NCBI GenBank assembly: GCA_964566945.1
Contig: CAZMKE010000008.1
Location: forward strand, 81,222-145,221
From: an uncultured Verrucomicrobiota bacterium
GTDB lineage: Bacteria > Verrucomicrobiota > Verrucomicrobiia > Limisphaerales > SXQI01
DNA: 64,000 nt
Direction of reading: 5' to 3'
Made by a program: the position numbers and the translations under genes. This document shows positions 27,182-43,459 of the stretch, piece by piece. The notes under the pieces are model-generated. The model ran no database searches. It had not been told where the DNA came from and was given only the letters and a program-made list of their open reading frames with translations. Positions within the stretch are counted from its first letter, which is position 1. Each line of letters opens with the position of its first letter.

Positions 27182-29806
27182 ATGGTCACGCGCCGAGTCC
27201 AACTTTTTTGCCTCGAGGTCCTTTTGATCTCGCCGCTGCTGGCGTCGCTCTCCTCTTCGGCGACGCCGGCGAACAAGGCGGCGTTCAAGCGGCATTACGA
27301 TCGCTTTCTCCCGGCGGCCCTGAACAACTGTGCCGCCTGCCATCTGCCGAGCGCGAAGAAGAACCCGGAAACCCTGGCGGAGTTCCCACACAATCCCTTC
27401 GGCAATCGCCTTCGAGTTTTGGGGGAAGAACTGGCCGCCCAAGGAAAACCTGCTTCGCTAGGCGCGCGCCTGGACCTGGCAGCCAAAGAAGATTCCGACG
27501 GGGATGGGGTTTCAAATCAGGATGAGATTCTGCTCGGGCACAACCCCGGGGACGCGAAGGACACGCCGTCCAGCGACGCGCTGAAATCGCTGGCCACCCT
27601 CTCGGCCGATCTTCGCTCGTTTCTGTCTGCGTATCGCTGGGAGCCATTTCAAACGGTTCGCCGGCCAGCCGTGCCGGTCCTTCAGAACCCGGGCTGGGCG
27701 CGCAATGAGATCGACTGTTTTATCGCCGCGCAGCACGAGAAACGAGGGCTGATGCCGCGGCCGGAGGCGAGCCGGGAGATTTTGCTGCGCCGGGTTTACC
27801 TTGACCTGATCGGACTATCCCCCACGCCCGAGGAGCGCCGGAAGTTCCTGGAAGATTCCTCGTCCGACGCCTACGAGCGCCTGGTGGACCGGCTGCTGGA
27901 AGACCCGCGCTACGGCGAGCGCTGGGGGCGGCACTGGATGGATGTCTGGCGGTACAGCGATTGGGCGGGCTGGAGCGGAGGAAATCAAATCCGCGACAGC
28001 AAACCGCATATCTGGCGCTGGCGCGATTGGATCGTGGAGTCGTTGAACGGGGACAAGCCGTATTCGCAAATGATCGTGGAAATGCTGGCGGCAGACGAAC
28101 TGGCCCCTGAAGACGCCGGAGCGCTGCGCGCCACCGGGTTTCTGGTGCGGAATTACAAAATGCTGAGCCGCGAGCAGTGGCTGGAGGATACGGTGAAGCA
28201 CACGTCACAGGCATTTCTGGGCGTGACGATGGGCTGCGCGAAATGCCACGACCATATGACCGATCCGATCCAGCAGACCGAGTACTACCGGCTGCGGGCG
28301 GTGTTTGAACCGCACCAGGTGCGAACCGACCGGCTGCCGGGCGAGTTGGATGCGGCCAAGGTCGGGTTGGTGCGCGCCTACGACGCCCAGCCGACGCCAG
28401 CGACTTACTTTTTTGTCCGGGGCGACGAGCGCAAGGCCGATACGAATCGCGTGATGACACCGGGCGTGCCGCGCGCACTGACGTGGGAGGGCTCCAGTTT
28501 TGCGCCGGCGCCGGTGCCATTGCCTCGATTCGCGGGCTATCCCGACCGGCGTCCATTTGTCGTGGAGAAAGTTCTCGCCAATTCCCGGCAGGCGCTGGAA
28601 ACGGCGGAAAAAGCCGTCGCGGCAGCCCAGAGTGGAACGCCTTCCGCCCAGATCAAGCGAGCGGAGCTGGCTTTCGCCCTGGCAGAGGCGCGGCACGAGG
28701 CCCTGTTGAATGTCTTGCGCCTTGAAGATCTGGATGAGCAAGGCGGCAAGGAAAGCCCCGAAAGACGGGAACTGGCAGGGACGACCGCGGCCTTGCAGCG
28801 CAAAGCGGACCTGCTCGAAGCAAAGCTGAAACTCGAAGAGGCGCGCCGGACGGAGCGGGATGCCGCCGCCGGAAAGGAAGCCGAGAAGGCGAAAGCGCGC
28901 CGTCTTGAGGCCGAGAAGGGACTGAGCGACGCCGAAAAGCAGTTTCAGGGCGGTTTCAGCACCGATTACAAGGCGCGCGAGGCGGAGACCTACCCCCTCC
29001 AGAGCAGTGGACGACGGCTCGCGTTTGCCCGGTGGGTGACGGATAACCGGAATCCGCTCACGGCCCGAGTCGCGGCCAATCACATCTGGCTCCGTCACTT
29101 TGGTCGCGGCCTGGTTTCCACGCCCGAGAATTTTGGAGCCAATGGCAACCCGCCCTCCCATCCAGAACTGCTCGACTGGCTCGCCGCAGAATTCATGGCG
29201 CGCGGCTGGAGCATGAAAGCTTTGCACCGCCTGATCCTCACCAGCAGCACCTACCGCATGACCTCGACAGGGGACGACCGGGACGCCAGCCTGGATCCGG
29301 ACAACGTCTATCTTTGGCGCATGCCGTCCCGCCGGTTGGATGCGGAACTCGTGCGCGATAATCTGCTCGCGGCCGCCGGAGATCTCGATCCGTTGATGGG
29401 CGGTCCAGAGATCGATCATGCGGATGGCCTTGTCTCGAAACGGCGCAGCCTCTACCTGCAGATCGCCGCGGAGAAGGAAGTGGAGTTCCTGAAGATTTTC
29501 GACGGTCCGGCCGTGACAGAATGCTATCAACGCCACCCGACAGTGATGCCGCAACAGGCCCTGGCGCTGGCCAACAGCAAAATCGCCCTGGCCGAAGCAC
29601 GTTCGCTGGCCGCCAGGCTGTCCGATTCCCGGGATGACCGGGCCTTTGCGGCAGCCGCGTTCGAGCGGGTGCTCGCCCGACAGCCCAGCGCCGCGGAATT
29701 GGAAGCGTGCGCCGCCTTTCTCCGAAATTCTTCGGAGCAGGAAAAGCGGCGGGAAAATCTCGCCCTGGTCCTTTTCAACCATAACGATTTCGTCACGGTC
29801 CGCTAA
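27182..29806 (+). CDS. PSCyt1/DUF1549/DUF1553 (PSD1) domain protein
   Basis: It has an N-terminal planctomycete cytochrome-c motif NNCAACHLP. The DUF1549 block is RRVYLDLIGLSPTPEE, followed by CAKCHDH. The DUF1553 C-terminus ends in FNHNDFVTVR. Confidence 0.88.
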   Translation: MVTRRVQLFCLEVLLISPLLASLSSSATPANKAAFKRHYDRFLPAALNNCAACHLPSAKKNPETLAEFPHNPFGNRLRVLGEELAAQGKPASLGARLDLAAKEDSDGDGVSNQDEILLGHNPGDAKDTPSSDALKSLATLSADLRSFLSAYRWEPFQTVRRPAVPVLQNPGWARNEIDCFIAAQHEKRGLMPRPEASREILLRRVYLDLIGLSPTPEERRKFLEDSSSDAYERLVDRLLEDPRYGERWGRHWMDVWRYSDWAGWSGGNQIRDSKPHIWRWRDWIVESLNGDKPYSQMIVEMLAADELAPEDAGALRATGFLVRNYKMLSREQWLEDTVKHTSQAFLGVTMGCAKCHDHMTDPIQQTEYYRLRAVFEPHQVRTDRLPGELDAAKVGLVRAYDAQPTPATYFFVRGDERKADTNRVMTPGVPRALTWEGSSFAPAPVPLPRFAGYPDRRPFVVEKVLANSRQALETAEKAVAAAQSGTPSAQIKRAELAFALAEARHEALLNVLRLEDLDEQGGKESPERRELAGTTAALQRKADLLEAKLKLEEARRTERDAAAGKEAEKAKARRLEAEKGLSDAEKQFQGGFSTDYKAREAETYPLQSSGRRLAFARWVTDNRNPLTARVAANHIWLRHFGRGLVSTPENFGANGNPPSHPELLDWLAAEFMARGWSMKALHRLILTSSTYRMTSTGDDRDASLDPDNVYLWRMPSRRLDAELVRDNLLAAAGDLDPLMGGPEIDHADGLVSKRRSLYLQIAAEKEVEFLKIFDGPAVTECYQRHPTVMPQQALALANSKIALAEARSLAARLSDSRDDRAFAAAAFERVLARQPSAAELEACAAFLRNSSEQEKRRENLALVLFNHNDFVTVR

Positions 29807-29809
29807 CGC

Positions 29810-31276
29810 ATGAAAAAAACCTCGCAGAGCTGTGGATTGACCCGCCGGTCCTTTCTGGCGGACACCGGCCTGGGCTTTACCGGCCTGGCTCTCGGCGCGA
29901 TGTGGTTGCGCGATGCCGCCAAGGCGGCCACGGACGGCTGGCGGCCGCCGGACGGACGGCCGCACCGCACTCCGAAAGCACGGTCGGTGATCTGGATTTT
30001 TCTGTGCGGCGGAGTGAGCCACCTCGAGAGTTTTGACGTCAAGCCAGAGCTGAACAAATACGCGGGGAAATCAATCGAGGAGACGCCGTTCAAAAACATT
30101 CTCGATCCAAAACGGGTGAATCAGGATGTGGTGGGCGCGAACCCGGCGCACGGAAACCGCAAGATGATCATGCCGCTGCAAACGGGCTTTCAGCGTTACG
30201 GCGAAAGCGGCCTGCTCGTGGGTGATTGGTTCCGGCAGGTGGGGGCTCACGCGGACGACCTGGCTGTCATCCGATCTCTGTGGACGATTCATAATGATCA
30301 CGGAGCCCAGCTGACCTGGCAGACCGGACGCCATCCGCGCGAGCTTGATCATCCCACGCTGGGCTCGTGGGTCTGCTACGGCCTCGGCACGATGAACCAA
30401 AACCTGCCGGAATACGTGGTGCTTGGGGTGCCGACCGGAGATTGTTGCGGTGGCGCTTTTACCCACGGGGCGGCCTACCTTGGCGCCGAGTACGCCGGGG
30501 TCCGGCTCAGTGTAGATCCGAAAAATCCGATGCCGTTTATTGCGCCTCCGGAAGGGGCCCTGACGCGCGAGGAGCAATTGGACAACCTCAGCCTGCTCGG
30601 GCAGCTCAACCATCTCGCCGGCATCGACTATCCGGATGACAAGGATCTCCGCGCCCGCATCAAAGCGTACGAACTCGCCTTTCAGATGCAGACCTCGATT
30701 CCCGAAACGCTCGAGCTGCATCGGGAAACGCCGGCGACCCGCCAGCTCTATGGCTTGGATCGGCCGGAAACGAAAAGTTTCGGCGAGCAGTGTCTGGTCG
30801 CCCGCCGGCTGGTGGAACGCGGCGTCCGGTTCATCCAGCTTTTCCACGGAGGCGGGGGCGGCGGAGATTGGGACGCGCATTCGGAGATCAAATCAAACCA
30901 TGGCAAACTGGCCGAACAAGTGGACCGGCCGATTGCGGGACTCCTGGCCGACTTAAAGCAGCGCGGATTGCTCGACGAAACCATCGTGGTTTTCGGAACC
31001 GAATTTGGCCGCTCGCCCGGCGCGGAGGGGACCGGCCGTGATCATCACCCGAACGGCTTCAGCGCCTGGCTGGCGGGCGGCGGAATCAAAGGCGGGGTGA
31101 CGCACGGCGCGACAGACGAACTTGGCTTTCATGCCGTGGAAGATCGCCACTACGTCACAGACATTCACGCCACCGTCCTCCACCAACTTGGGCTCGATTC
31201 CCGCCTGCTCGAACTGCCCGGCCGGAAGCGGCTCGATATGGATCACGGCGCGCCCATTTTCCCGATTATCACCTGA
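29810..31276 (+). CDS. DUF1501 sulfatase-fold protein with a Tat signal
   Basis: It has the Tat motif LTRRSFLADTGLGFTGLALGA and the blocks GGVSHLESFD and FGTEFGRSP...GRDHHP. It is the canonical partner of the upstream DUF1549/1553 gene, with a 3-nt gap. Confidence 0.88.
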   Translation: MKKTSQSCGLTRRSFLADTGLGFTGLALGAMWLRDAAKAATDGWRPPDGRPHRTPKARSVIWIFLCGGVSHLESFDVKPELNKYAGKSIEETPFKNILDPKRVNQDVVGANPAHGNRKMIMPLQTGFQRYGESGLLVGDWFRQVGAHADDLAVIRSLWTIHNDHGAQLTWQTGRHPRELDHPTLGSWVCYGLGTMNQNLPEYVVLGVPTGDCCGGAFTHGAAYLGAEYAGVRLSVDPKNPMPFIAPPEGALTREEQLDNLSLLGQLNHLAGIDYPDDKDLRARIKAYELAFQMQTSIPETLELHRETPATRQLYGLDRPETKSFGEQCLVARRLVERGVRFIQLFHGGGGGGDWDAHSEIKSNHGKLAEQVDRPIAGLLADLKQRGLLDETIVVFGTEFGRSPGAEGTGRDHHPNGFSAWLAGGGIKGGVTHGATDELGFHAVEDRHYVTDIHATVLHQLGLDSRLLELPGRKRLDMDHGAPIFPIIT

Positions 31277-31290
31277 CCCCGCCCAGCTCG

Positions 31291-32301
31291 ATGAAGACGA
31301 TCCGGATCGCTCAATTCGGGCTCGGCCCGATTGGCCTTGAGACCTTAAAGCTCGCCGCCACGCGCCCCTGGATCGAGATCGTGGGCGGCGTCGACGTCAA
31401 CCCAGCCCTGGCCGGACAATCCCTCGGGGTGCTCACCGGGCTGCCGTCGCTGAGGGGTGCGCCTGTTGTTCCCGCCGTTTCGGACCTGACGGAGCGGCCG
31501 GACCTGATTTTTCACACAGCGGTCTCGAAACTAGCCGATGCCGCGGCTCAAATCCTGCCGCTGGCGGCGCTGGGGATCAGCATTGTTTCTTCCTGCGAGG
31601 AACTGCTCTTCCCGGCTTTTCGGAATGCGCACCTGGCCCGGCAGCTTGACGAAGCGGCGAAGTCGGGCGGGGCGCGCATTCTCGGGACAGGCGTCAATCC
31701 CGGCTTCGTAATGGACCTCCTGCCTCTTTGTTTAACGGGGGTCTGCCGTTCGGTGGAAGCCGTCCACGTTCAACGCGTTGTCAACGCCAGCACACGGCGC
31801 GGACCGCTCCAGAAAAAGATCGGCAGCGGTTTGCCGCCGGCCGAGTTTGAACGCCTTTTCCGGCTGGGGCAGACCGGCCACGCCGGATTGAAGGACTCCG
31901 CCGCCCTCTTGGCGCATGGCCTGGGCTGGGAGCTGGAAAGCCTGGTCGAAACAGGCGCGGCGGTGGCAGCGGATCATGATATTGCCACGGCGCACGTCAC
32001 CGTTAAGAAAGGCCAAACCTGCGGCTTGCATCAGCGGGCGGAGGGAGTCGTCCGCGGCCGGACCTGCCTGACGCTCGACCTCAAGATGTATCTGGATGCG
32101 CCCGATCCGCACGACGCCTGCCAGATCGTAGGGGAACCGCCTCTGGACCTTCGCCTCGAAGGCGGGGTAGCGGGCGACACGGCCACGATTGCGGCGCTGG
32201 TCAACGCCGCGCCGCGCCTGCTTTCGGCCCCGCCCGGACTCCGCCTCATGACGGATATCGCTCTTCCAAAATTCGCCGGGGCCTTCTCGAGGGCAACGTA
32301 A
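31291..32301 (+). CDS. NAD(P)-binding DapB-like oxidoreductase (amine-dehydrogenase-like family)
   Basis: It has the N-terminal Rossmann motif IRIAQFGLGPIGLETLK. The overall length and pattern resemble dihydrodipicolinate-reductase-like proteins, but the function is not assignable from sequence alone. Confidence 0.5.
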   Translation: MKTIRIAQFGLGPIGLETLKLAATRPWIEIVGGVDVNPALAGQSLGVLTGLPSLRGAPVVPAVSDLTERPDLIFHTAVSKLADAAAQILPLAALGISIVSSCEELLFPAFRNAHLARQLDEAAKSGGARILGTGVNPGFVMDLLPLCLTGVCRSVEAVHVQRVVNASTRRGPLQKKIGSGLPPAEFERLFRLGQTGHAGLKDSAALLAHGLGWELESLVETGAAVAADHDIATAHVTVKKGQTCGLHQRAEGVVRGRTCLTLDLKMYLDAPDPHDACQIVGEPPLDLRLEGGVAGDTATIAALVNAAPRLLSAPPGLRLMTDIALPKFAGAFSRAT

Positions 32302-33786: not shown

Positions 33787-34422
33787 ATGACGCGGTCGAT
33801 GGAGGGCGGAATACAGGCGATGGCAGGCATGGAGGATGGGCCGGACGCCGGCAGAGGTTCGGTCCCAGCCTCTCCCGTGTTGCTGGGGCTCACTCGCGCC
33901 ATGGCGGCTGGCGACGAGCAGGCGTTTCGTGATTTTTTTGGCCTGTATTTTCATCGGCTGTTCGCCTATCTCCTGACAGTAGCGCACGGGAACGAGGACC
34001 TGGCGCGGGATTTACTGCAGCAGACCATGATTCGGGTGGCGCGCCATGTAAGACCATTTGCCAGCGAGGAGGAATTCTGGCGCTGGCTCACCCGGCTGGC
34101 GCGGAGCCGTGCCATTGACGAGGGGCGCAGGGCCGGGCGCTACTTTGCCTTTCTGCAACGCTTCACCCTTTGGATCAATACACCCGAAGAGGCCGGACCG
34201 GAAGCAGACCTGGACGCAGTGTTGCAACAAGAATTAGCCCGGCTGCCGGACGAAGAGAGAGCTGTGCTGGAGCGCAAGTATCTCCAGCACTGGTCCGTAC
34301 GGGAAATCGCGGAACTGCAAGGGACTACCGAGAAGGCGGTTGAGTCCCGCCTTAGCCGAGCACGCGCGAGACTGAAGCAATTGACTCTGGCGCGGCTCGC
34401 GGAGGAGGGCGAAAATGAGTAA
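33787..34422 (+). CDS. ECF-type RNA polymerase sigma factor
   Basis: Region 2 reads FRDFFGLYFHRLFAYLLTVAHGNEDLARDLLQQTMIRV. Region 4 reads LPDEERAVLERKYLQHWSVREIAELQGTTEKAVESRLSRARARLK. Several in-frame ATGs (33787-33829) could be the start. Confidence 0.85.
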   Translation: MTRSMEGGIQAMAGMEDGPDAGRGSVPASPVLLGLTRAMAAGDEQAFRDFFGLYFHRLFAYLLTVAHGNEDLARDLLQQTMIRVARHVRPFASEEEFWRWLTRLARSRAIDEGRRAGRYFAFLQRFTLWINTPEEAGPEADLDAVLQQELARLPDEERAVLERKYLQHWSVREIAELQGTTEKAVESRLSRARARLKQLTLARLAEEGENE

Positions 34423-34903
34423 ACTCGATGATCAAGAACGACTGGATCTGTTGCGGGATATGTTACAAACCAGCTGCCCGCCCGATTTCGAAACGGAGAT
34501 CTTCGCCAGAACACTGAAAGCGGCGCGCCGGAGGGCGATAAGACGGACGGTGCTGCGCGGCACTGCCGCCACTGCAGCGTTGTTTCTATTCGCCGCAGCG
34601 ATTCACAGCCGGTGGCAGCGACCTCCCTCAGAACCGACGACCGTCCGCGTGCACGCCCACAAGAGCATCCAAACGGTCCCGTTTGGGAACATCATTCACA
34701 CCGAGAGAATGACCGAACGCGCAACCCCCTCGCCGGGCGTCGCGTTCATCCGCACTCAAAGCGCTGCTGAACAAGGAATTCTTCATCCAATCAACGATGA
34801 AGAGCTCATGAATTTACTCCGCGGGACGGGCATGGCCCTGATCCGCCGAGGCGCGCACGGCGCGGAGCTGATCGGCGATCCAGCAATCAGCGGGAGCCCA
34901 TAA
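34415..34903 (+). CDS. putative anti-sigma factor (single-pass membrane protein)
   Basis: It overlaps the sigma gene by 8 nt. It has one TM helix, GTAATAALFLFAAAI, after a short cytoplasmic N-terminus. I see no recognisable ZAS motif. Confidence 0.5.
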   Translation: MSKLDDQERLDLLRDMLQTSCPPDFETEIFARTLKAARRRAIRRTVLRGTAATAALFLFAAAIHSRWQRPPSEPTTVRVHAHKSIQTVPFGNIIHTERMTERATPSPGVAFIRTQSAAEQGILHPINDEELMNLLRGTGMALIRRGAHGAELIGDPAISGSP

Positions 34904-35237: not shown

Positions 35238-37277
35238 ATGAACGAATCAGAAAATACCAACCACGGCCCCGGTGCGTCCGCAGAAGGGGTAACGCGGCGT
35301 GAGTTTGTCGCCACGGTCGGCGTCACCGCCGCCGCCATTGCCGCCGCCGCGCAACCGCGGCAGGCCCGAGCCGCAAATGCCGCCACGGCGGTCTACCGAA
35401 TTCATCCGGCGATTGGCATCGCGCGGCTCGGAAACCTGGACCCGGATCAAGGCTTCATCGTCGGCCCGGAGATCCCGGGGCAACGCGCAACAGACGGCCT
35501 GACGAATCAGGAAGCTCTGAACTACAAGGTGAACGGGCAGGTAAAACCTCAAGCTGCCCGCTTCCGCATTTTCAAATATGAACCCGATGCGAACGGCAAA
35601 CTCACCCCAACGGGTGAAGTCGTGCCCCAAACCGGATCAACCGGCGGTCCTTTTGTCAGCGCGATCACCTGGAAGGTTCATCTCGCCAATCGCAAAGCGT
35701 CCTTTTACGAAGAAAACGGCCCGAGCGGCGAGACCCACGCATCCGGGGCCCTCCGCAACCCAACGATCAGCGATCGAGCTTCCCTCGAGAGCGACTTTGG
35801 GCCGCGCTCGATCTCTGGCCGGCTCGCGCCGCCCCAACTCTTCACGCCCGGAACCGGAGGCGGCTACGCCGTTCGGCAGGTCAAAGCCTCGGACGGCTCC
35901 ACGGTGATCGATTACCTGGGCCAGCTCCGCACCGATCCGGATGGACACCTCTTGGTATTCGGCGGACGGGGCAAGTCCGCTTCGAGCATTTCCCCGCCGC
36001 AGCCGCTCACGCACTGGTCGAACAACAACTATTGGTTCGACGATATCGCGGATGGCCCGGTCACCGCGATCGTCACGATCAACGATGGCCAGGGCAACCT
36101 GACGGATATTCCCGTGGACGCAGCGGGCAAGGCCTGGGTGCTGGTCGCGCCGCCCGATTTTTCACCGGGGCTGCAGAGCGCCGTTTCGCTCTACGATCTC
36201 CTCTACGACCTGGGCGTGCGGAAGCTCGCGATTCCGGCCAGCAATGCGCTCTACGCCGACGGCGGACCGCTGGCCCGCCTCCGCCAATTGCACGACGCCT
36301 GGACGGCGTGGCAGGCTAACCCTTCCCCCGACGGGTTCGAGTTCGGAGCGATTCAGCCGGATTACCAGTCCGAGATCTGGCCGATGATCCTCAACGCGGT
36401 GAACTACGTTTACACCACGGGCCTGGTGAACTTTAAACACGGCAACATGCTGACCGATCCGCTCGGAGATCCCAGCCCGGCCGCCGCGAAGGATCGCAAA
36501 ACCTTTTTCGGTTTTGTCCGCCCGCCGGAAAATGCCGCCACGAATGTCAATGGCCCGGCCACCATGCCCCGCCTCTACGGCGACAACTGGTACATCGGCA
36601 ACGAAAACTTCGCCTCGACGTTTGGTCAGAATGGCCCGGGCAATGCCGGGGGCGGGGCGGTCCAAGGAACCGGCCCTCGAAAAGTTCCGAAGTACCAGCG
36701 GTACATGACGCTCACGCCTACTCAGTACGGGCTGCTACGCTCCTGGTGTGCCGGAAACTTTGTCCCCCCTCCGGGCAGCTCGACGCCGGACACCACGATT
36801 ACCCCGCACGGCCTCGACCGGGCGAACCTGGAGAATTGCATCGGCGGCCCGTTTTACCCTGGGATTGAGTGCAGCTGGCAAATGCGAAATCCCCTGCTCT
36901 TCATCGAGCCATTTCGCTTGGATCACGCCGCGACCAGCCAGTATCTCCGCCCCGATGGCACTCCCGAAGGAACAACGATTACGGCGGGGCATTTCTCACG
37001 CCAGATGGCTCTGCCGTGGCAAGCGGACTTCAACGACTGCTCCAAGGCGCTGAACCTCGGCTGGTGGCCCTCGGCCCGTCCGGATGATGTGTTCCTCAAT
37101 GTGAACGACAAGCTCCAGGACCGCGTTCCATGGGCGCGCCCCGACACGAAATGGCCCAGCGGCAGCACCAGCTCCAGCCACGAGGACATGGTGGGCAGTT
37201 GGTACAAGTTCGGGTTCGTTCTGGAGGATGGCCCGGGCTTTTATCTCGAGAAGGAGCGAAACAGCCAGGTGCCCTAA
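35238..37277 (+). CDS. LodA/GoxA-family cysteine tryptophylquinone (CTQ) quinoprotein oxidase homolog with a Tat signal
   Basis: It has the Tat signal TRREFVATVGVTAAAIAAAAQPRQARA. LodA-like blocks are present: YRIHPAIGIARLGN, WKVHLANRKASFYEE, DFGPRSISG, LGQLRTDPDGHLLVFGGRG, WFDDIADGPVT, PGIECSW and LPWQADFNDC. Confidence 0.8.
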   Translation: MNESENTNHGPGASAEGVTRREFVATVGVTAAAIAAAAQPRQARAANAATAVYRIHPAIGIARLGNLDPDQGFIVGPEIPGQRATDGLTNQEALNYKVNGQVKPQAARFRIFKYEPDANGKLTPTGEVVPQTGSTGGPFVSAITWKVHLANRKASFYEENGPSGETHASGALRNPTISDRASLESDFGPRSISGRLAPPQLFTPGTGGGYAVRQVKASDGSTVIDYLGQLRTDPDGHLLVFGGRGKSASSISPPQPLTHWSNNNYWFDDIADGPVTAIVTINDGQGNLTDIPVDAAGKAWVLVAPPDFSPGLQSAVSLYDLLYDLGVRKLAIPASNALYADGGPLARLRQLHDAWTAWQANPSPDGFEFGAIQPDYQSEIWPMILNAVNYVYTTGLVNFKHGNMLTDPLGDPSPAAAKDRKTFFGFVRPPENAATNVNGPATMPRLYGDNWYIGNENFASTFGQNGPGNAGGGAVQGTGPRKVPKYQRYMTLTPTQYGLLRSWCAGNFVPPPGSSTPDTTITPHGLDRANLENCIGGPFYPGIECSWQMRNPLLFIEPFRLDHAATSQYLRPDGTPEGTTITAGHFSRQMALPWQADFNDCSKALNLGWWPSARPDDVFLNVNDKLQDRVPWARPDTKWPSGSTSSSHEDMVGSWYKFGFVLEDGPGFYLEKERNSQVP

Positions 37278-37361
37278 AGCGTGGAAACACCGGCGAGCAA
37301 TGAAGCCATGTTTGAAAGGCCCCGGCGGGCGGGCGGCGGCATTTGAACGCGGCGCCGCCAA

Positions 37362-37841
37362 GTGAAGAAGCCCAAGGAGATCTCCCGGCGGGCGCTGCTG
37401 ACCCTATGGCGGACAGCCGCCCGGCCCGTGCCGAAACCACCGGACGCCCAAGCCCGCCCTGAAGACCAGGGCTCCCCGCGCGTGTTACGGCAAGCACCCA
37501 CGCCGCTGCCATGGTTGCTGCGCGAACCGGTAGAGCAGGCCGCGGAAACGCCACTGGCGGGAGAGCCTTTAGTGGCGTTGATCGACGCCACCCGATGCAC
37601 CGCGTGGCGCGGGTTGCCGTGCCGGATTTGCTATGATCTCTGTCCCGTCCCGGGAGCGATCACGATGTCACGCCGTGCGCGCTCGTTCGTCCCCACCGAC
37701 GGGCCAGCGGACTGCACCGGCTGCGGAATCTGCCGCGAACATTGCCCGGCCAACGGCGCCATTCGCCTTGGTCCGGGATCACACGACGAGCATGTGTCCC
37801 GGCGCGTCCGCGTCCTTCAGCCCGAACCGGGGGAGGAATGA
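37362..37841 (+). CDS. 2x[4Fe-4S] ferredoxin-domain protein
   Basis: It has one canonical cluster motif, CTGCGICREHCP, and one atypical motif, CTAWRGLPCRICYDLCP. It uses a GTG start. The N-terminus contains ISRRALL, which is RR-like but lacks a good hydrophobic core. Confidence 0.65.
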   Translation: MKKPKEISRRALLTLWRTAARPVPKPPDAQARPEDQGSPRVLRQAPTPLPWLLREPVEQAAETPLAGEPLVALIDATRCTAWRGLPCRICYDLCPVPGAITMSRRARSFVPTDGPADCTGCGICREHCPANGAIRLGPGSHDEHVSRRVRVLQPEPGEE

Positions 37842-37857
37842 GCGCTGAAGACACTCC

Positions 37858-39309
37858 ATGCCGATTGAAAGCCAGGCGCTCGGAATGACCGACGCACTTA
37901 TCCTCGGAGGCGGTCCGGCCGGACTTGTTCTGGCCATTCTCCTGCGCCGCCTCGGCCACTCTGTGATCGTCCTCGAGCGCAGCCGCTACGAACGGCCGCG
38001 GGCTGGCGAAACGTTTGGCGGCGAATTGCGCTCCCTGCTGAGCGCGCTGGGTTTGGAAGCCCCACTCTCCGGGGTCCAGCGCACGCCATTCCGCGGGGTG
38101 CGATCCGCGTGGGGCAGCGAAGATCTCGTGGATCGGTCCTCGCTATTCAACCCGTTCGGCGAGGGGTGGCATGTCGATCGCGCCGAATTTGACGCGGCGC
38201 TCGCTCACACGGCCCGGATGGAGGGGGTGGACGTTCGGCTGGAAACGCGCCCGAAGTCCATCGATCGCGAAGGCATTGACCGATGGCTTGTCCGGACCAA
38301 GGACGGGAACGCGCTAGCCGCGCGGTATCTGGTGGATGCGAGCGGCCGGGGAGCGCCCGCCAGCGCGCCGGCCATCCCTGGGCGGCGCTGGCTGCAAATG
38401 GACCGGATGGTTGCGGTAATGGCGCGGCTCCGCGCCCCGGACTCGCACGCGTGGGAGATCGCACCGGAACTCCTGCTTGAAGCCGTGCCCGAGGGCTGGT
38501 GGTACTCTGCTCCGCAACCGGGCAACACTCTGCTGATTACGCTGATGACCGACGCCGATCTCATGCCCGCGGGACCACGCGATCGTCTGGCAGAAGCGTT
38601 TGCCGCCGCGCTCTCACGCAGCGACTTCACCGCGCAACGCGGCCGGGCAGGCAAACTCGAAGGCGCTCCCTCCATCGTTCGCGCGGACACGGGCCTGCTC
38701 CTCCCGGATCACGGCCCTGGCTGGCGCGCAATCGGCGATGCCGCGATGAGTTGCGATCCCTTGGCCGGCGACGGCGTCACGCGCGCAGTCCGCACCGCCG
38801 CGAACGCCGCTCCCGACATCCATCGGGCTCTCGCGGGGAATTCCCCGGCAGGCCATCCAGCCGATCTGCCTCAGGCGGCTGGAGATTCTCCTGGGCCTTT
38901 CACGGGATACCTTGAGCTTCGTTCCCGCTATTACAAGCGAGAGAGCCGGTTCTCACGCGCGCTTTTCTGGTCTCGCCGCCAGCCCTTGGACTGGCGGGTG
39001 GCCCCCATTTTCCTCGATCCGGTCCAGCGCCTTCATTGCCCGGAACTCCCGCTCAAACGAGAAGATCTCGCCCCAGTCGAAGCGTTGGTGCCGCCTCGGG
39101 CCTTGCGCTCTTTGCTCGAGAGACTGCGCCAGCCCATGCCCGCTCACCAGGCGCTGGCAGCCCTACGATCCGAAGCGCCCCTCGAGAATCGGCGGTTGCT
39201 GGCAGGAATGCAGGATCTGATCGCCCGCGGCATTCTGCAGGCCAGCGGCTCCAACAAGAATCGCGAGGAAATTTCGCGAAATCCCGGAAAGGCAGAAGAA
39301 ATCCATTGA
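37858..39309 (+). CDS. LodB-like FAD-dependent oxidoreductase (flavoprotein for CTQ biogenesis; halogenase/monooxygenase fold)
   Basis: It has the dinucleotide fold ALILGGGPAGLVLAILLRRLGHSVIVLER and the GD motif AIGDAAMSCDPLAGDGVTRA. It sits downstream of the lodA-like gene, as in known lodAB/goxAB operons. Confidence 0.75.
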   Translation: MPIESQALGMTDALILGGGPAGLVLAILLRRLGHSVIVLERSRYERPRAGETFGGELRSLLSALGLEAPLSGVQRTPFRGVRSAWGSEDLVDRSSLFNPFGEGWHVDRAEFDAALAHTARMEGVDVRLETRPKSIDREGIDRWLVRTKDGNALAARYLVDASGRGAPASAPAIPGRRWLQMDRMVAVMARLRAPDSHAWEIAPELLLEAVPEGWWYSAPQPGNTLLITLMTDADLMPAGPRDRLAEAFAAALSRSDFTAQRGRAGKLEGAPSIVRADTGLLLPDHGPGWRAIGDAAMSCDPLAGDGVTRAVRTAANAAPDIHRALAGNSPAGHPADLPQAAGDSPGPFTGYLELRSRYYKRESRFSRALFWSRRQPLDWRVAPIFLDPVQRLHCPELPLKREDLAPVEALVPPRALRSLLERLRQPMPAHQALAALRSEAPLENRRLLAGMQDLIARGILQASGSNKNREEISRNPGKAEEIH

Positions 39310-39344
39310 CGCAATCACTTTAATTAGATAATTTCTAGCTACTT

Positions 39345-39595
39345 TCGATGGAAACCTGCACAAACATATCAACCTTGAACCGGCCAATGATGCCGATCGC
39401 GCCGATTATGCGTGCGACACGTCATAATTGGTCCAGTCCGGGTTATATCGTCAGCCTGGGCTTATCCATTTCGTATCAAGGGCAAGGCCTCAAAACACGT
39501 TTTGGATACTCAGAAAGGAAGCAGGCAAAATAGGAACATTATAGAATTTTGAAAACCCTGCTTACCGAAACGTAAGCAGGGTTTTTTGTTTTTCA
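39345..39595 (+). ncRNA. candidate ~250-nt small RNA or leader, bounded by a sigma70-like promoter and an intrinsic terminator
   Basis: TTGACG (39306-39311) is followed by a 15-nt spacer and GATAAT (39327-39332). A strong terminator lies at 39552-39595. The region is 43% G+C by hand count. The internal 61-aa ORF has no SD and unconvincing composition. Confidence 0.3.
39552..39595 (+). terminator. rho-independent terminator (bidirectional architecture)
   Basis: An AAAA run precedes a perfect 10-bp stem CCCTGCTTAC/GTAAGCAGGG (39556-39565 / 39572-39581) with a 6-nt loop. The stem is followed by TTTTTTGTTTTT. Confidence 0.8.
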
Positions 39596-40218
39596 GGATG
39601 AATGACAAGCAGCGCAAACCCAGGAGAAGCAAGCCGTGGACGATGATCTGACGACATCTTGATGATGTCTAGCGACACAATGAAATGGGCGCCGGAGAGC
39701 CGAAGCTCTCCACCGACGAACTTTGCCTCGAGGCGATTTCGAACAGCGCCAAACAGATTCAGCCAGATTTTACAATCAAAGGGCTTCGGAGGAGGTGTGC
39801 CCAAAAACACCGAAACAGCCGCCGTGAAACCGCGGGTTGGGACTTAACCAGTCACCAAGAGGTGTCTGTCTTTTTCCTTCCGGGAGGGATGAGCCTGCCC
39901 ATCCATTCCATTCGATTTTCCAGACGCAGCCTCCCTTCCGCTCGAAGTTTCCTGCCAACTAACTAGTGTTTAGGGTAGCGGCTCAGCCGAAGGCGCCGGA
40001 ACGATTGCTTTCAATTACTTTTCGATCTTTCACTGCGGGAAGAATGAGATTCAGCCAAGCCTCATAAGCTTCGGTTTCGTGGGCGCAACTCCCACTCCCG
40101 CAACCAATTTTCCAGCGCGGCGGAAGAACTCCGCCAGCAGCCGGCCGCCGGGATCCAAATCCCCCTTCGGCTCGGTCAATCCACCCGTCAACACATCAAC
40201 CTCAAATCAAGGAGTTCT

Positions 40219-40368
40219 ATGAAAACAGCCATCCGTTACCGCAGCCAGTTGTTGCTTCGCAAGAGTTATCGGCCGGTGCGAGCGATCCGAGCTCAGCCGG
40301 GGACACATGTGGTCTCAAAGCCGCCACGCCGGTTTGGGCTGAAGCCCAGGCTGGAACTAATTCCGTGA
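40219..40368 (+). CDS. small highly basic hypothetical protein (49 aa; not in the ORF track)
   Basis: AAGGAG (40209-40214) sits 4 nt before the ATG. Hand translation gives MKTAIRYRSQLLLRKSYRPVRAIRAQPGTHVVSKPPRRFGLKPRLELIP. Its stop overlaps the GTG of the next ORF (GTGA). Confidence 0.35.
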   Translation: MKTAIRYRSQLLLRKSYRPVRAIRAQPGTHVVSKPPRRFGLKPRLELIP

Positions 40369-40370
40369 GA

Positions 40371-40577
40371 ATGGGCGCTCAGAGCAATGAAAAGGCGCCC
40401 ACTGACCCTGTTTATAAAATGAAAATGACGACGAATGTTTCGGCAAGGGCGCTCCCCGCCACCACCCAGCAAGGACGATGGCGAGTGATCGGGCTTCTCA
40501 TCCGTTGCGCCGACCTGCTCGCGAAACCCCTCACTGATTGGCCTCGCGAGGTTCAGGAGTCTTATCTGGCTCGTTGA
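40371..40577 (+). CDS. small hypothetical protein (68 aa from the ATG; 70 aa from the GTG at 40365)
   Basis: The ORF is coupled to the preceding small ORF. I recognise no family, and the coding status is uncertain. Confidence 0.25.
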   Translation: MGAQSNEKAPTDPVYKMKMTTNVSARALPATTQQGRWRVIGLLIRCADLLAKPLTDWPREVQESYLAR

Positions 40578-40704
40578 GCCGCTTTGATCGATTTCTCGGG
40601 ACGAACCGCTAAACGGCACGAGGCGCTCCGTGGAGCGCGGAGCGCCTCATTCGCCCGGGAAAGCCAAAAGGCAGACACCTCGAAAATGCCTGCATAAGGA
40701 AGCT

Positions 40705-41289
40705 ATGGACCAGATCCTCAAACGAAATATCGTGCTCGTGCTGAATCGATTCTGGCAGGCGATCGACATTTGAACGCCCGCCGACGCGTTTTGCCGCATG
40801 GCTGCCAATGTAGCCACGGCTTTGGAAATCGAAGGAGCGGGCCAGGTCCGACCGGTTTCGTGGCCCGATTGGCTCGGGCTGCCCATCCGTGACCGCGACC
40901 TTGCCGTCAGCACGGTGCGCGGCCCGGTCCGCGTCCCGACCGTGATCGTAGCCGTGAACTTCAGCAGAGTGCCGAAAAAACGGCCCCGTCTGAATGCCGT
41001 CAATGTTCGCCTCCGCGACGGAGGCCGCTGCCAGTATACCGGCCGCGAACTCGGGCCGAACGAAGGCAATCTGGATCACATCATCCCGCGTTCCAAAGGC
41101 GGGGCGAGCACTTGGGAAAACCTGGTCTGGGCCTCAAAGGAGGTGAATGCCCGAAAGGGCGACCGACTGCCTCACGAGGCCGGCCTCAAGCTGCTCAAGG
41201 TTCCCAAGGCGCCAAAGGAGCTGCCTGTCACGGCGGTCCTCAGAAATCTGGCGGGGATTCCGGATTGGAAGTTGTTCCTGGCCGAATGA
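40705..41289 (+). pseudogene. HNH endonuclease (McrA/COG1403-type, ~190 aa family) interrupted by an in-frame TGA at 40771-40773
   Basis: The upstream 22 codons, MDQILKRNIVLVLNRFWQAIDI, are the family's conserved N-terminus and are in frame with the 163-aa track ORF (40798-41289). That ORF carries the HNH motif GNLDHIIPRSKGGASTWENLVWASKEVNARKG. Confidence 0.7.
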
Positions 41290-41293
41290 CTGC

Positions 41294-41323
41294 GGGAGGA
41301 GCGATGGCCTGGTCGCTCCTCCC
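41294..41323. terminator. GC-rich perfect 11-bp hairpin between convergent genes (no U-tract)
   Basis: The stem is GGGAGGAGCGA / TCGCTCCTCCC with an 8-nt loop. It starts 5 nt after the HNH stop. Confidence 0.4.
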
Positions 41324-41371
41324 AAACGAGCGCCGTAGCTCCGGGTTTCCTTTCGCCTTGGCTAAAACAGG

Positions 41372-43459
41372 TTAATTACCACTTTGTCCGGAGCTGAGGC
41401 GCGTCCGAAAGAAGTTCGCGCTGGCGTCCGAATCGGTCGGCACGAGAAAGGTGGCAGACCAGGCATTCGTGAAACGGCCGACCGGAATCCAATGAGCGAG
41501 ATCCGACGATCGCTCGATCGCAAAGGGAAGACCCGAGTTATCGGCCGTGGTTACTTCCGCGAACTGGAGTCCCCCGCCCCCAGGAAACGATAGCCGCCCA
41601 AAACGCAAAGCGGGCGCCGTCACCGGAGTGAGCGTAAACTCGACGGAGCTTCCATACTGGGTCCGAGCAAAAGCGCCGATTTCAAACACGTCGTTGGTTC
41701 CGGCCTGGAAGACCAGCGGTTCCCACGTCGTGGTCGCCAGATAATTCTGCTCCGTCGGCTGTCCGGCTGGATAAATCACCACACGATTGTCAAAAACTCC
41801 AGACTTAAGAAATAAAGTCCAGAGGCCAGCCGCGGGCGCTTTCCACTCCCACCAGGCACTGCGAAAAAGGGCGCGATCCTGTTCCGGGAAAACCGGGTCC
41901 GGCGCCGGACTGGCCGCTTGCGTCGCACCGAACGTGCGCCCAAAGACGCGCACGCTTTCGGAGGCCAGCGAGACCCGGCCGCTGAAGGCGTCGTTGACCG
42001 GAGGAGGGGTGAACAGGAAGTTGAGATTGGTTGCCCCCTCGCTCCCACTGACGCCGTCCATGACCATCCAGAAGTCGTCTTTGGCGGCTTCCCAAATGAT
42101 GCCGTTGGTTCCCAAGATATTGGCGAGCGTCATTGTGGGAAGCGGACTCCCCTCGAGGAGAGACAACACCGGAGCGAAGTCGGGCAACGGATGCAGATCC
42201 ACGAAAGGCGCCAGACAGGGGGGGCCGTTGTATTGCGTGCCCGACCCGGTCTGATCGGTGGGCTCGCTGTGGGGCTCGTCGTAGCGCAAAGGAGGAGCGG
42301 TGGTGAGTTGAACGATGCCGTTTGTGGGAGCGGTCCAGCGAAACCAGACCGTGCTCGTGCCTGACCCCATCTCGCCGGAACGCTGGGTGGCGCCGAGGTT
42401 GGAAGCAACGAAGGAAAAATCTGTTCCCAGGAGCACCGTTGCAGCTTCCACCGTATCGTTCGGCGGGGCTGGGTTGAACACGAGTTCAAAATCGCCGGCG
42501 ACATCGGGCAAACTCGGAAACCGATCCACCTGAATGAAGTAAATCGTGCCCGGGCTGACGTGCCACCTTACCGAACGGCGGGCCACCGGCTCACTCTGAC
42601 AGGTGTTGCCGAACTCGGTGGCGGATGAAGCAATCATGTTCAGGGACTGAAACGCGCCGCGCCCGTAAACCCCGACGAGCGGACAGCCGATCGAGGGCGC
42701 GTTCGTGCCAAGGAAACGAATCTCTACGGAGCCGTAGCCAGGGGCTTGCCAGGTCCACCACACGGTGCGGTGCAGAACGGCATCACTGATCGCTGGCTCC
42801 CCTTCGTCTGCCGTCGCCGCCAAAAGATCCGCGTGAAAGGTAGCATTCGTCCCGACCAGCGCGATCGCCCGGCTGAAACGATCGTTGTCGGGGGCGGGCG
42901 CCTCGGGATAAGCGAAGCGAACCAACACTGGCAGATTGACGGTGGGTTGCGCCGGACCGGGCACGCCCAGGATCGGCCCGGCGGAAGGCGGAACGGCCGC
43001 TTCAAGCTGAATCAGATATTTCTGGCCCTGCCGAACCTGCAGCGAACCGCTCGAATCAAATTCCCAAGCCCCGTCTCTGGGCCTGCGGTAACTTTCACCG
43101 ATCAACTCAAGCCCGAATTCGCGGTCGACGAATACTCGGACCGCGACCGGACTCCCGCTGGGATCAGCGTTCCAAAGAAAGATTCCGTCGGCTGCGGCCT
43201 CCCAACTCCACCAGGCGGTCTTGCCGAGCCCGCCACTTGCGCTCGGTTCAAAATCCTGCCGCGTCGCCGCCCCCAGGTCTGCCTGAAGGGCGAAGCTTGC
43301 CCCTGCCACCGGAGTGGCGTTTTCCAGATTGTCATTAGCCGGCGGAATTGGAGGAACGCCTGGCTGAGCGCAAAGCGTAGCGGCGAGAAAAGCGAAGAAA
43401 ACTGCCACCGCCACCCGTCGGCCAAAAAATGGCGGACGCAAGCGGCCCAAGCAGGGCAA
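41372..43459 (-). CDS. secreted protein with four tandem ND-x-F...GEP...VWWxW beta-sandwich (PPC-like) modules and a C-terminal FFR tail
   Basis: It uses a TTG start with a signal-like RRVAVAVFFAFLAATLCAQ. Four repeats begin at ANDNLENATPV, PDNDRFSRAIAL, PPNDTVEAATVL and PVNDAFSGRVSL. Each continues with ...AT...GEP/GEM... then VWW/WWS/VWF-x-W-x-AP. Confidence 0.65.
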   Translation of the reverse strand: MPCLGRLRPPFFGRRVAVAVFFAFLAATLCAQPGVPPIPPANDNLENATPVAGASFALQADLGAATRQDFEPSASGGLGKTAWWSWEAAADGIFLWNADPSGSPVAVRVFVDREFGLELIGESYRRPRDGAWEFDSSGSLQVRQGQKYLIQLEAAVPPSAGPILGVPGPAQPTVNLPVLVRFAYPEAPAPDNDRFSRAIALVGTNATFHADLLAATADEGEPAISDAVLHRTVWWTWQAPGYGSVEIRFLGTNAPSIGCPLVGVYGRGAFQSLNMIASSATEFGNTCQSEPVARRSVRWHVSPGTIYFIQVDRFPSLPDVAGDFELVFNPAPPNDTVEAATVLLGTDFSFVASNLGATQRSGEMGSGTSTVWFRWTAPTNGIVQLTTAPPLRYDEPHSEPTDQTGSGTQYNGPPCLAPFVDLHPLPDFAPVLSLLEGSPLPTMTLANILGTNGIIWEAAKDDFWMVMDGVSGSEGATNLNFLFTPPPVNDAFSGRVSLASESVRVFGRTFGATQAASPAPDPVFPEQDRALFRSAWWEWKAPAAGLWTLFLKSGVFDNRVVIYPAGQPTEQNYLATTTWEPLVFQAGTNDVFEIGAFARTQYGSSVEFTLTPVTAPALRFGRLSFPGGGGLQFAEVTTADNSGLPFAIERSSDLAHWIPVGRFTNAWSATFLVPTDSDASANFFRTRLSSGQSGN

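Follow-up and report, generated by a model that had tools for sequence, protein, structure and literature searches.

The enzymes that depend on cysteine tryptophylquinone (CTQ) and had been characterised as of a 2025 review are only three: quinohemoprotein amine dehydrogenase (QHNDH), LodA and GoxA. LodA, the lysine epsilon-oxidase of Marinomonas mediterranea (2YMW, 3WEU), has a flavoprotein gene, lodB, downstream of its own and builds its CTQ from C516 and W581 (PMC4417212). GoxA, the glycine oxidase of M. mediterranea and Pseudoalteromonas luteoviolacea (6BYW; the latter enzyme is called PlGoxA here), has the flavoprotein partner GoxB, and a 2013 paper described a twin-arginine translocation (Tat) signal on the GoxA of M. 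mediterranea (PMC3948610). A 2015 survey reported the Tat motif throughout the Group II LodA-like proteins and recorded LodA-like genes for 3 of 40 Planctomycetes and for none of 34 Verrucomicrobia (PMC4417212). NADH, NADPH and FADH2 all fail to reduce QhpG, the flavoprotein of the QHNDH system (7CTQ); a ferredoxin is put forward by its authors as a possible donor, and the physiological electron donor of the tryptophylquinone-building flavoproteins is an acknowledged open question (PMC7876137). Here we describe an operon in a 64,000-nt stretch of contig CAZMKE010000008.1 from an uncultured Verrucomicrobiota bacterium (the whole stretch is called the window, and positions are numbered from its first letter). 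It encodes a LodA/GoxA-family quinoprotein with a predicted Tat signal, a LodB-like flavoprotein and, between them, a short ferredoxin that belongs to a small conserved clade.

A short ferredoxin gene in the middle of the operon

The three open reading frames (ORFs) are co-directional, with gaps of 84 nt between the quinoprotein and ferredoxin genes and 16 nt between the ferredoxin and flavoprotein genes (Table 1). An earlier note on this DNA had recognised both genes, the one like LodA and the one like LodB, correctly, and it barely described the middle gene, which codes for a conserved ferredoxin derived from NapG/MauM. The 159-aa product of this gene matched the NCBIfam models for NapG (5e-10) and MauM/NapG (TIGR00397, 1e-9), scoring 38 bits where the TIGR00397 cut-off is 178.85. 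It was 39–48% identical to the ferredoxins encoded at the same position in relatives, which are 213–248 aa long with 15–18 Cys.

All members of this ferredoxin clade share an invariant S/T-R-R-x-F/L-L-x-x-W motif, which reads SRRALLTLW at the N-terminus of the window copy. In classical NapG, a hydrophobic segment (h-region) of ~14 residues separates RRxFL from the conserved Trp; the whole clade lacks it. The best 12-residue hydropathy ranged from –0.5 to 0.9 in the clade, compared to 1.3–1.6 in two classical NapG proteins and ~2 in the quinoprotein signals. Because this segment is gone, the clade ferredoxins cannot be autonomous Tat substrates. The window copy is alone in the clade in also having lost Cys motifs I and II, which leaves it with two of the four motifs and 8 Cys rather than ~16. 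Judged by its low score, its two motifs and the absent h-region, the 159-aa protein derives from the MauM/NapG family without being a regular member of it. The nearest relatives of the clade remain MauM and NapG, from the clusters for methylamine dehydrogenase, a tryptophan tryptophylquinone (TTQ) enzyme, and for periplasmic nitrate reductase: LRPPGA and the layout of the Cys motifs are common to both sides, whereas the NapH/MauN-type membrane partner is not present here. Five somewhat more distant NapG/MauM-like ferredoxins (P0135 and P0379–P0382) that lie outside the LodA-linked clade have an N-terminus composed of RRxLLxFWRR, a Pro-rich linker and LRPPGA, again with no h-region, and the RRxLLxFWRR N-terminus may mark a wider subfamily of export-disabled ferredoxins.

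Assembly error does not account for the short ORF, since it is intact in a strain of 97.5% nucleotide identity (L138), with the same start and stop and 8 of 8 Cys retained. Four of the eight amino-acid changes between the two copies fall in the linker at the deletion scar. Between these strains the ferredoxin gene differs by 7 synonymous and 8 non-synonymous changes, against 39 and 6 in the quinoprotein gene; the latter ratio points to strong purifying selection on the quinoprotein. In an AlphaFold2 (AF2) model, the core of the 159-aa protein had a predicted local distance difference test score (pLDDT) of ~80 and superposed at 2–3 Å over 69–75 columns on the 2x[4Fe-4S] domains found in RnfB, dihydropyrimidine dehydrogenase and oxalate oxidoreductase, with weak Foldseek E-values of 2e-3 or worse. 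The exact product was missing from a collection of 15 billion proteins in which the products of the flanking genes were present, and in L138 the gene caller picked a 250-aa antisense ORF (2041–2793, –) over the ferredoxin. For these two reasons the ferredoxin gene is probably unannotated in public records.

Linkage of the ferredoxin and quinoprotein genes across genomes

A ferredoxin gene stands beside the quinoprotein gene in ~15 of the 16 lineages whose quinoproteins are at least 53% identical to that of the window, and these lineages span several phyla. The two genes adjoin each other in a Byssovorax metagenome-assembled genome (MAG; L001), a Rhodocyclaceae MAG (L002), a Myxococcales bin (L031) and six metagenome contigs (L135, L136, L137, L139, L140 and the contig of P0025); five more quinoprotein–ferredoxin pairs were inferred from contigs of identical length in the two protein searches. 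The flanks of the ferredoxin-bearing loci differ from locus to locus and hold unrelated genes. We take the three genes to form a self-contained, horizontally mobile cassette.

Gene order within the cassette is less constant than the pairing itself. The maturase gene is inverted in L136, L137, L139, L140 and the P0025 contig, and there the ferredoxin gene is still co-directional with the quinoprotein gene and adjoins it. At one locus the ferredoxin gene lies upstream of the quinoprotein gene, on the side away from the maturase. In L001 and L135, the ferredoxin gene overlaps the start of the maturase gene.

The linkage has a clear limit: no ferredoxin was found in any examined relative with a quinoprotein identity of 51% or less. 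In a neighbour-joining tree, the known ferredoxin-linked proteins separated from the ferredoxin-less ones in 200 of 200 bootstraps, and the exact clade split was recovered in 57 of 200. Ferredoxin genes predicted from this tree at the P0029 and P0120 loci proved absent on inspection. Universality of the ferredoxin within the clade was likewise ruled out by L084–086, whose quinoproteins lie inside the clade at 64% identity and where a search with relaxed thresholds also gave no ferredoxin within ~6 kb.

The clade of ferredoxins is very small, with ~14 clusters above a sharp drop in score and ~7 representatives at 180 bits or more among 1.84 billion proteins, none of the latter fused to another protein. 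Among the best 150 of 4958 matches in these 1.84 billion representatives, none joined the ferredoxin to a LodA-like or a LodB-like partner, the clade members being 149–241 aa long. No ferredoxin at a LodA-like/LodB-like locus was found in the literature searched. The ferredoxin gene is the only new feature of this locus: the family is already named, and the quinoprotein and flavoprotein taken without the ferredoxin are one more uncharacterised member of an annotated family.

The quinoprotein belongs to the LodA/GoxA family

All the sequence blocks from which the earlier note had recognised the 679-aa protein are present: YRIHPAIGIARLGN (residues 53–66), WKVHLANRKASFYEE, DFGPRSISG, LGQLRTDPDGHLLVFGGRG, WFDDIADGPVT, PGIECSW (from residue 541) and LPWQADFNDC (from residue 592). 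A Pfam search bore out membership of the family, with similarity far beyond chance: LodA_N (PF17990) covered residues 56–303 at 3e-48 (165 bits; gathering threshold 26.3) and LodA_C (PF18417) residues 483–604 at 1e-33 (116.5 bits; gathering threshold 25). A search with the subfamily profile reached 1e-87 for the crystal structures of LodA and 2e-37 for GoxA of P. luteoviolacea. The AF2 model, built from an alignment of 73 sequences, had a pLDDT of 86 and a predicted template modelling (TM) score of 0.88, with disorder confined to the signal peptide and one loop. The top 50 Foldseek matches to this model in the PDB were significant and all of them LodA (TM 0.66) or GoxA (~0.6), within a range of 0.57–0.67. 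LodA was the best match in sequence and in fold.

Scores against the equivalog models were below cut-off, at 208 bits vs 600 for LodA (NF038172) and 168.5 vs 750 for GoxA (NF038173). On this evidence the protein is a member of the LodA/GoxA family and an equivalog of neither the lysine epsilon-oxidase nor the glycine oxidase, its score being nearer for LodA (Group I) than for GoxA (Group II). Identity is 22% to LodA and 17% to GoxA. Because the scores fall far below the equivalog cut-offs and the active-site positions differ, a substrate cannot be inferred, and on this point the earlier note, which had called the substrate unknown, still holds. Homologues of the quinoprotein are numerous (more than 1000 were found). 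A scan of 185,579 GTDB species representatives gave 390 LodA-like loci with a best match of 73%, among them a distant homologue in a Verrucomicrobia MAG (L066); a metagenome scan yielded three close relatives only. Close relatives, at 47–73% identity, carry the NCBI name "LodA/GoxA family CTQ-dependent oxidase".

The Tat signal noted earlier is genuine, with T-R20-R21-E-F-V, a hydrophobic stretch and A43-R-A45; its novelty had been overstated, given the published signals on GoxA and throughout Group II (PMC3948610, PMC4417212). The best 12-residue Kyte-Doolittle mean of its h-region was 2.1, and the NCBIfam model TAT_signal_seq (TIGR01409) gave a marginal 16.5 against a cut-off of 16.7. Among 121 homologues, 111 had an RR motif within the first 70 residues and 98 had an h-region hydropathy of at least 1.5; in the alignment of 73 relatives, RR was nearly invariant (at least 90% conserved). 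The quinoprotein is therefore predicted to be a Tat-exported precursor, and the AxA rule would place cleavage after A45. A Tat-type signal implies that the cofactor is matured in the cytoplasm before export, as the earlier note had held. In the alignment, LodA lacks such a signal.

The predicted CTQ residues are Cys601 and Trp610

Profile alignment matched Asp597, Cys601 and Trp610 of the quinoprotein to D512, C516 and W581 of LodA and to D678, C682 and W697 of PlGoxA. The local motifs agree, PWQADFNDC here with PWQADFFNC in LodA and GWWP with YWWP at LodA Trp581. Each of the three residues was conserved in 73 of 73 subfamily sequences. We thus predict that CTQ is formed from Cys601 and Trp610, with Asp597 in attendance. 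The pair proposed before, Cys545 of PGIECSW and Trp594 of LPWQADF, was ruled out when the structures of LodA and PlGoxA were aligned, and likewise by its poor conservation (position 545 is Cys in only 17 of the 73 sequences and otherwise mostly Ala, Val or Phe). The spacing of 49 residues given for that pair was correct as arithmetic, although these are not the cofactor residues. The predicted pair is 9 residues apart, a spacing found in 72 of 73 relatives and unusually short compared to 65 in LodA and 15 in PlGoxA. Cys601 and Trp610, with this short loop, are the proper targets for mutagenesis and mass spectrometry.

Other active-site positions depart from both described oxidases. The active-site Asp that the earlier note had proposed to verify by alignment was found, as Asp597; the His was not, and Tyr540 occupies the position of the catalytic His583 of PlGoxA. 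In 68 of 73 relatives this position, which precedes PGIE, holds Phe or Tyr; in LodA it is Cys448. Trp260 takes the position of LodA Tyr211, and the loop with LodA Lys530 has no counterpart here.

The flavoprotein is a candidate CTQ maturase

The LodB-like flavoprotein does close the operon, as had been noted, with the motifs GGGPAGL and GDAA..DPLAGDG, and it covers the LodB and GoxB models end to end. The NCBIfam scores of the 483-aa protein were 197 bits for GoxB (5e-58), 197 for LodB (6e-58) and 178 for QhpG, all at full model coverage; the equivalog cut-off of 400 (NF038171, NF038174) was not reached. These scores mark the protein as a LodB/GoxB homologue that is not an equivalog, and it resembles QhpG almost as closely as LodB or GoxB. 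Its matches in the PDB included CmlS (3e-21) and QhpG (7ctq, 7e-16). QhpG belongs to a class of FAD monooxygenases that are not reduced by NAD(P)H. It differs in that it adds both oxygens and works on a small gamma subunit that a radical-SAM (S-adenosylmethionine) protein holds; the qhp genes are not present here. Since the GxGxxG of the flavoprotein begins at residue 17, there is no space for a signal peptide.

Beyond the region covered by the LodB and GoxB models, the flavoprotein has a C-terminal extension of ~100 aa (residues 376–483). This extension is kept in 33 related loci, whether or not a ferredoxin is present, and is missing in more distant LodB-like proteins. A role as a ferredoxin-specific docking domain was ruled out, as relatives with no ferredoxin have it too.

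About a dozen loci in Polyangium, Myxococcales and Fimbriimonadaceae have a LodA-like gene (45–50% identical to the query) and no LodB-like gene in the available flanks of up to ~7 kb per side (L007, L008, L010, L012, L013, L017–L019, L021, L023, L024 and L076). The neighbours in L007 and L010 are unrelated genes, for acyl-CoA dehydrogenase, histidine kinase, pirin, PfkB kinase and DUF5996. A missing lodB was reported just once in the 2015 survey (PMC4417212).

Proposed role of the ferredoxin, and alternatives

The explanation that best accounts for the locus as a whole, to which we assign a probability of roughly one half, is a three-gene cassette for a periplasmic CTQ enzyme in which the ferredoxin donates electrons to the maturase. 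Its core is very probable by analogy with LodA/LodB and GoxA/GoxB. The flavoprotein would oxygenate Trp610 and help to cross-link it to Cys601 in the cytoplasm, and the folded holo-enzyme would then leave through Tat. The quinoprotein would act in the periplasm by oxidative deamination, on an amino acid or an amine, and not on lysine or glycine in the manner of LodA or GoxA.

The part given to the ferredoxin is more tentative, at slightly less than even chances, and we favour it over a co-exported subunit. With its export h-region deleted, the ferredoxin would stay in the cytoplasm and feed electrons to the FAD maturase; loss of the h-region places it in the same compartment as the signal-less flavoprotein. 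We are led to this view by the QhpG-type flavoproteins, which neither NAD(P)H nor free FADH2 reduces, and by the two loci in which the ferredoxin gene runs into the start of the maturase gene. An accessory of this kind, useful though replaceable, would explain both the loss of the gene in one lineage and the two-cluster remnant here. The MauM ferredoxin sits in the clusters for TTQ, which we take to be a suggestive parallel.

Several points weigh against a cytoplasmic donor. The five loci with an inverted maturase and the one with the ferredoxin upstream are at least as easily reconciled with a ferredoxin that partners the quinoprotein. The conserved RR-x-F/L-L-x-x-W motif would be unexplained if the ferredoxin were simply cytoplasmic. 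In E. coli, LodB or GoxB alone is enough for LodA or GoxA to mature, so a dedicated donor is not generally needed. No ferredoxin–maturase fusion was seen among the best 150 matches of the search described above. The substitution counts also suggest that the window ferredoxin is under weaker constraint than the quinoprotein.

The ferredoxin could instead be an electron-accepting subunit that binds the folded quinoprotein while still in the cytoplasm, is carried out on the quinoprotein's Tat signal and, once in the periplasm, takes electrons from the reduced CTQ, which would make the enzyme a dehydrogenase and not an H2O2-forming oxidase. We consider this the main alternative, if an unlikely one. 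The ferredoxin gene is always co-directional with the quinoprotein gene and adjoins it, at gaps of 4–227 bp, and this holds also at loci with the maturase inverted or placed on the far side. The ancestry of the ferredoxin lies in the periplasmic NapG/MauM carriers, and the RR motif has been kept. Signal-less four-cluster ferredoxins are known to travel with Tat-signal catalytic subunits in DmsAB and PsrAB, where the gene for the catalytic subunit is likewise followed by that for the ferredoxin. The likeness is one of gene architecture alone, as those catalytic subunits are unrelated (molybdopterin vs CTQ) and the DmsAB/PsrAB systems include a membrane anchor gene. The other periplasmic tryptophylquinone enzymes, methylamine dehydrogenase (MADH), aromatic amine dehydrogenase (AADH) and QHNDH, are dehydrogenases with dedicated redox partners. 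However, deletion of the h-region would be pointless if export were wanted, and no gene for a membrane or quinone-linked partner is present in the cassette or conserved nearby in the examined loci. At 41–51% identity, sister quinoproteins share this Tat signal and the 9-residue Cys–Trp loop and lack a ferredoxin. Loss of the gene in one in-clade lineage and of half the clusters here would be odd for an obligate acceptor, and low-potential [4Fe-4S] clusters would be expected to accept electrons poorly from tryptophylquinol. Slightly more doubtful still is the fuller proposal that this clade is the first LodA-like CTQ enzyme to be a two-subunit periplasmic dehydrogenase, with a co-exported Fe-S subunit replacing O2 as the acceptor; if true, this pairing of quinoprotein and ferredoxin would have no characterised precedent.

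It seems improbable that the locus is an ordinary two-component LodA-like oxidase with its maturase and that the ferredoxin is a decaying passenger with no role in the operon. Decay would fit the two Cys motifs that the window copy lacks and all other clade members have, the near-equal synonymous and non-synonymous counts, the absence of the product from the protein collection, the preference for an antisense ORF in L138 and the related lineage with no ferredoxin. Against this, the ORF is intact in two strains, which agree in its start and stop and keep each of the 8 Cys, and half of its substitutions fall in the linker. The remaining motifs can, according to the model, form a compact 2x[4Fe-4S] domain, and in different phyla the gene has stayed beside that of the quinoprotein although the maturase has been rearranged. 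That the 679-aa protein has a LodA fold with no CTQ, as a non-catalytic or differently modified paralogue, would suit a subfamily with no characterised member and with Tyr or Phe in place of the Cys (LodA) or His (GoxA) before PGIE, and is very improbable in view of the invariant Asp/Cys/Trp triad, the adjoining maturase, the purifying selection and the confident LodA-like fold.

As a cytoplasmic donor or as an exported acceptor, a conserved, export-disabled ferredoxin is of interest, in the first case as a handle on the maturase reductant and in the second as a pointer to the first LodA-like dehydrogenase. The three-gene system can be cloned and offers a test of ferredoxin as the missing reductant of tryptophylquinone maturases. 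The same cassette bears on whether LodA-like enzymes can be dehydrogenases rather than generators of H2O2. No ferredoxin gene accompanies LodA, and none has been reported with GoxA.

Operon surroundings and host

Table 1. Positions of the operon, its parts and neighbouring features in the 64,000-nt window
Feature	Position	Strand	Remarks
PSCyt2/PSD1 gene (DUF1549/DUF1553)	27182–29806	+	
DUF1501 gene	29810–31276	+	
2,4-Diaminopentanoate dehydrogenase-like gene	31291–32301	+	
Cytochrome P460 ORF	32315–32884	–	189 aa; Pfam 5.7e-16
ECF (extracytoplasmic function) sigma factor gene	33787–34422	+	weak NCBIfam match
Putative anti-sigma factor gene	34415–34903	+	weak NCBIfam match; overlaps sigma factor gene
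Quinoprotein precursor ORF, LodA/GoxA family	35238–37277	+	679 aa; LodA_N and LodA_C
Predicted Tat signal peptide of quinoprotein, residues 1–45	35238–35372	+	RR motif, h-region; cleavage site from AxA rule
Predicted CTQ site Asp597/Cys601/Trp610 (WQAD-FND-C ... GW-W)	37026–37067	+	from alignment to LodA and PlGoxA
Short ferredoxin ORF, NapG/MauM-derived	37362–37841	+	159 aa; GTG start; 8 Cys, two [4Fe-4S] motifs
Flavoprotein ORF, LodB/GoxB/QhpG-type FAD protein	37858–39309	+	483 aa; CTQ maturase candidate
C-terminal extension of flavoprotein	38983–39309	+	
Terminator-like hairpin	39551–39586	+	15 bp stem then T-run; 242 nt 3' of flavoprotein gene; consensus match only
HNH endonuclease gene, small	40798–41289	+	
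ORF with repeat modules	41372–43459	–	695 aa
ECF-type sigma factor ORF with large extension	45177–47882	–	901 aa

The hairpin downstream of the operon has the longest stem, and such sites are not commoner in the region than expected from shuffled sequence. No riboswitch that might hint at a substrate was found in the 335-nt leader, where there were only two sub-threshold Rfam matches, and no tRNA was found in the window.

That the host is a bacterium of the Planctomycetes-Verrucomicrobia-Chlamydiae (PVC) group, as proposed earlier, agrees with the window's ArgH, which is 71–76% identical to those of Verrucomicrobiae, Pedosphaera and Limisphaerales, and with the nearby PSCyt2/PSD1 and DUF1501 pair. 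This pairing is typical for Planctomycetota and Verrucomicrobiota; here it is followed by the 2,4-diaminopentanoate dehydrogenase-like gene. The cytochrome P460 ORF lies ~2.4 kb from the quinoprotein gene and is convergent with the genes upstream, with no operon link established; the ligands of P460 proteins are hydroxylamine and NO.

The overlapping ECF sigma and putative anti-sigma genes end 335 bp upstream of the quinoprotein gene. Regulators 5' of the homologues vary, with an ECF sigma factor in L141 and GerE-type regulators in L139, L142 and the P0025 contig, and none is conserved. Directly 3' of the operon, positions 39310–41370 contain no convincing long gene. The 695-aa ORF that follows has no Pfam match, shows visible repeat modules of ~110 aa and adjoins the small HNH endonuclease gene. 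The 901-aa ECF-type sigma protein encoded further downstream combines N-terminal sigma-70 regions 2 and 4 with a large C-terminal extension that weakly matches a prenyltransferase-like alpha-alpha toroid.

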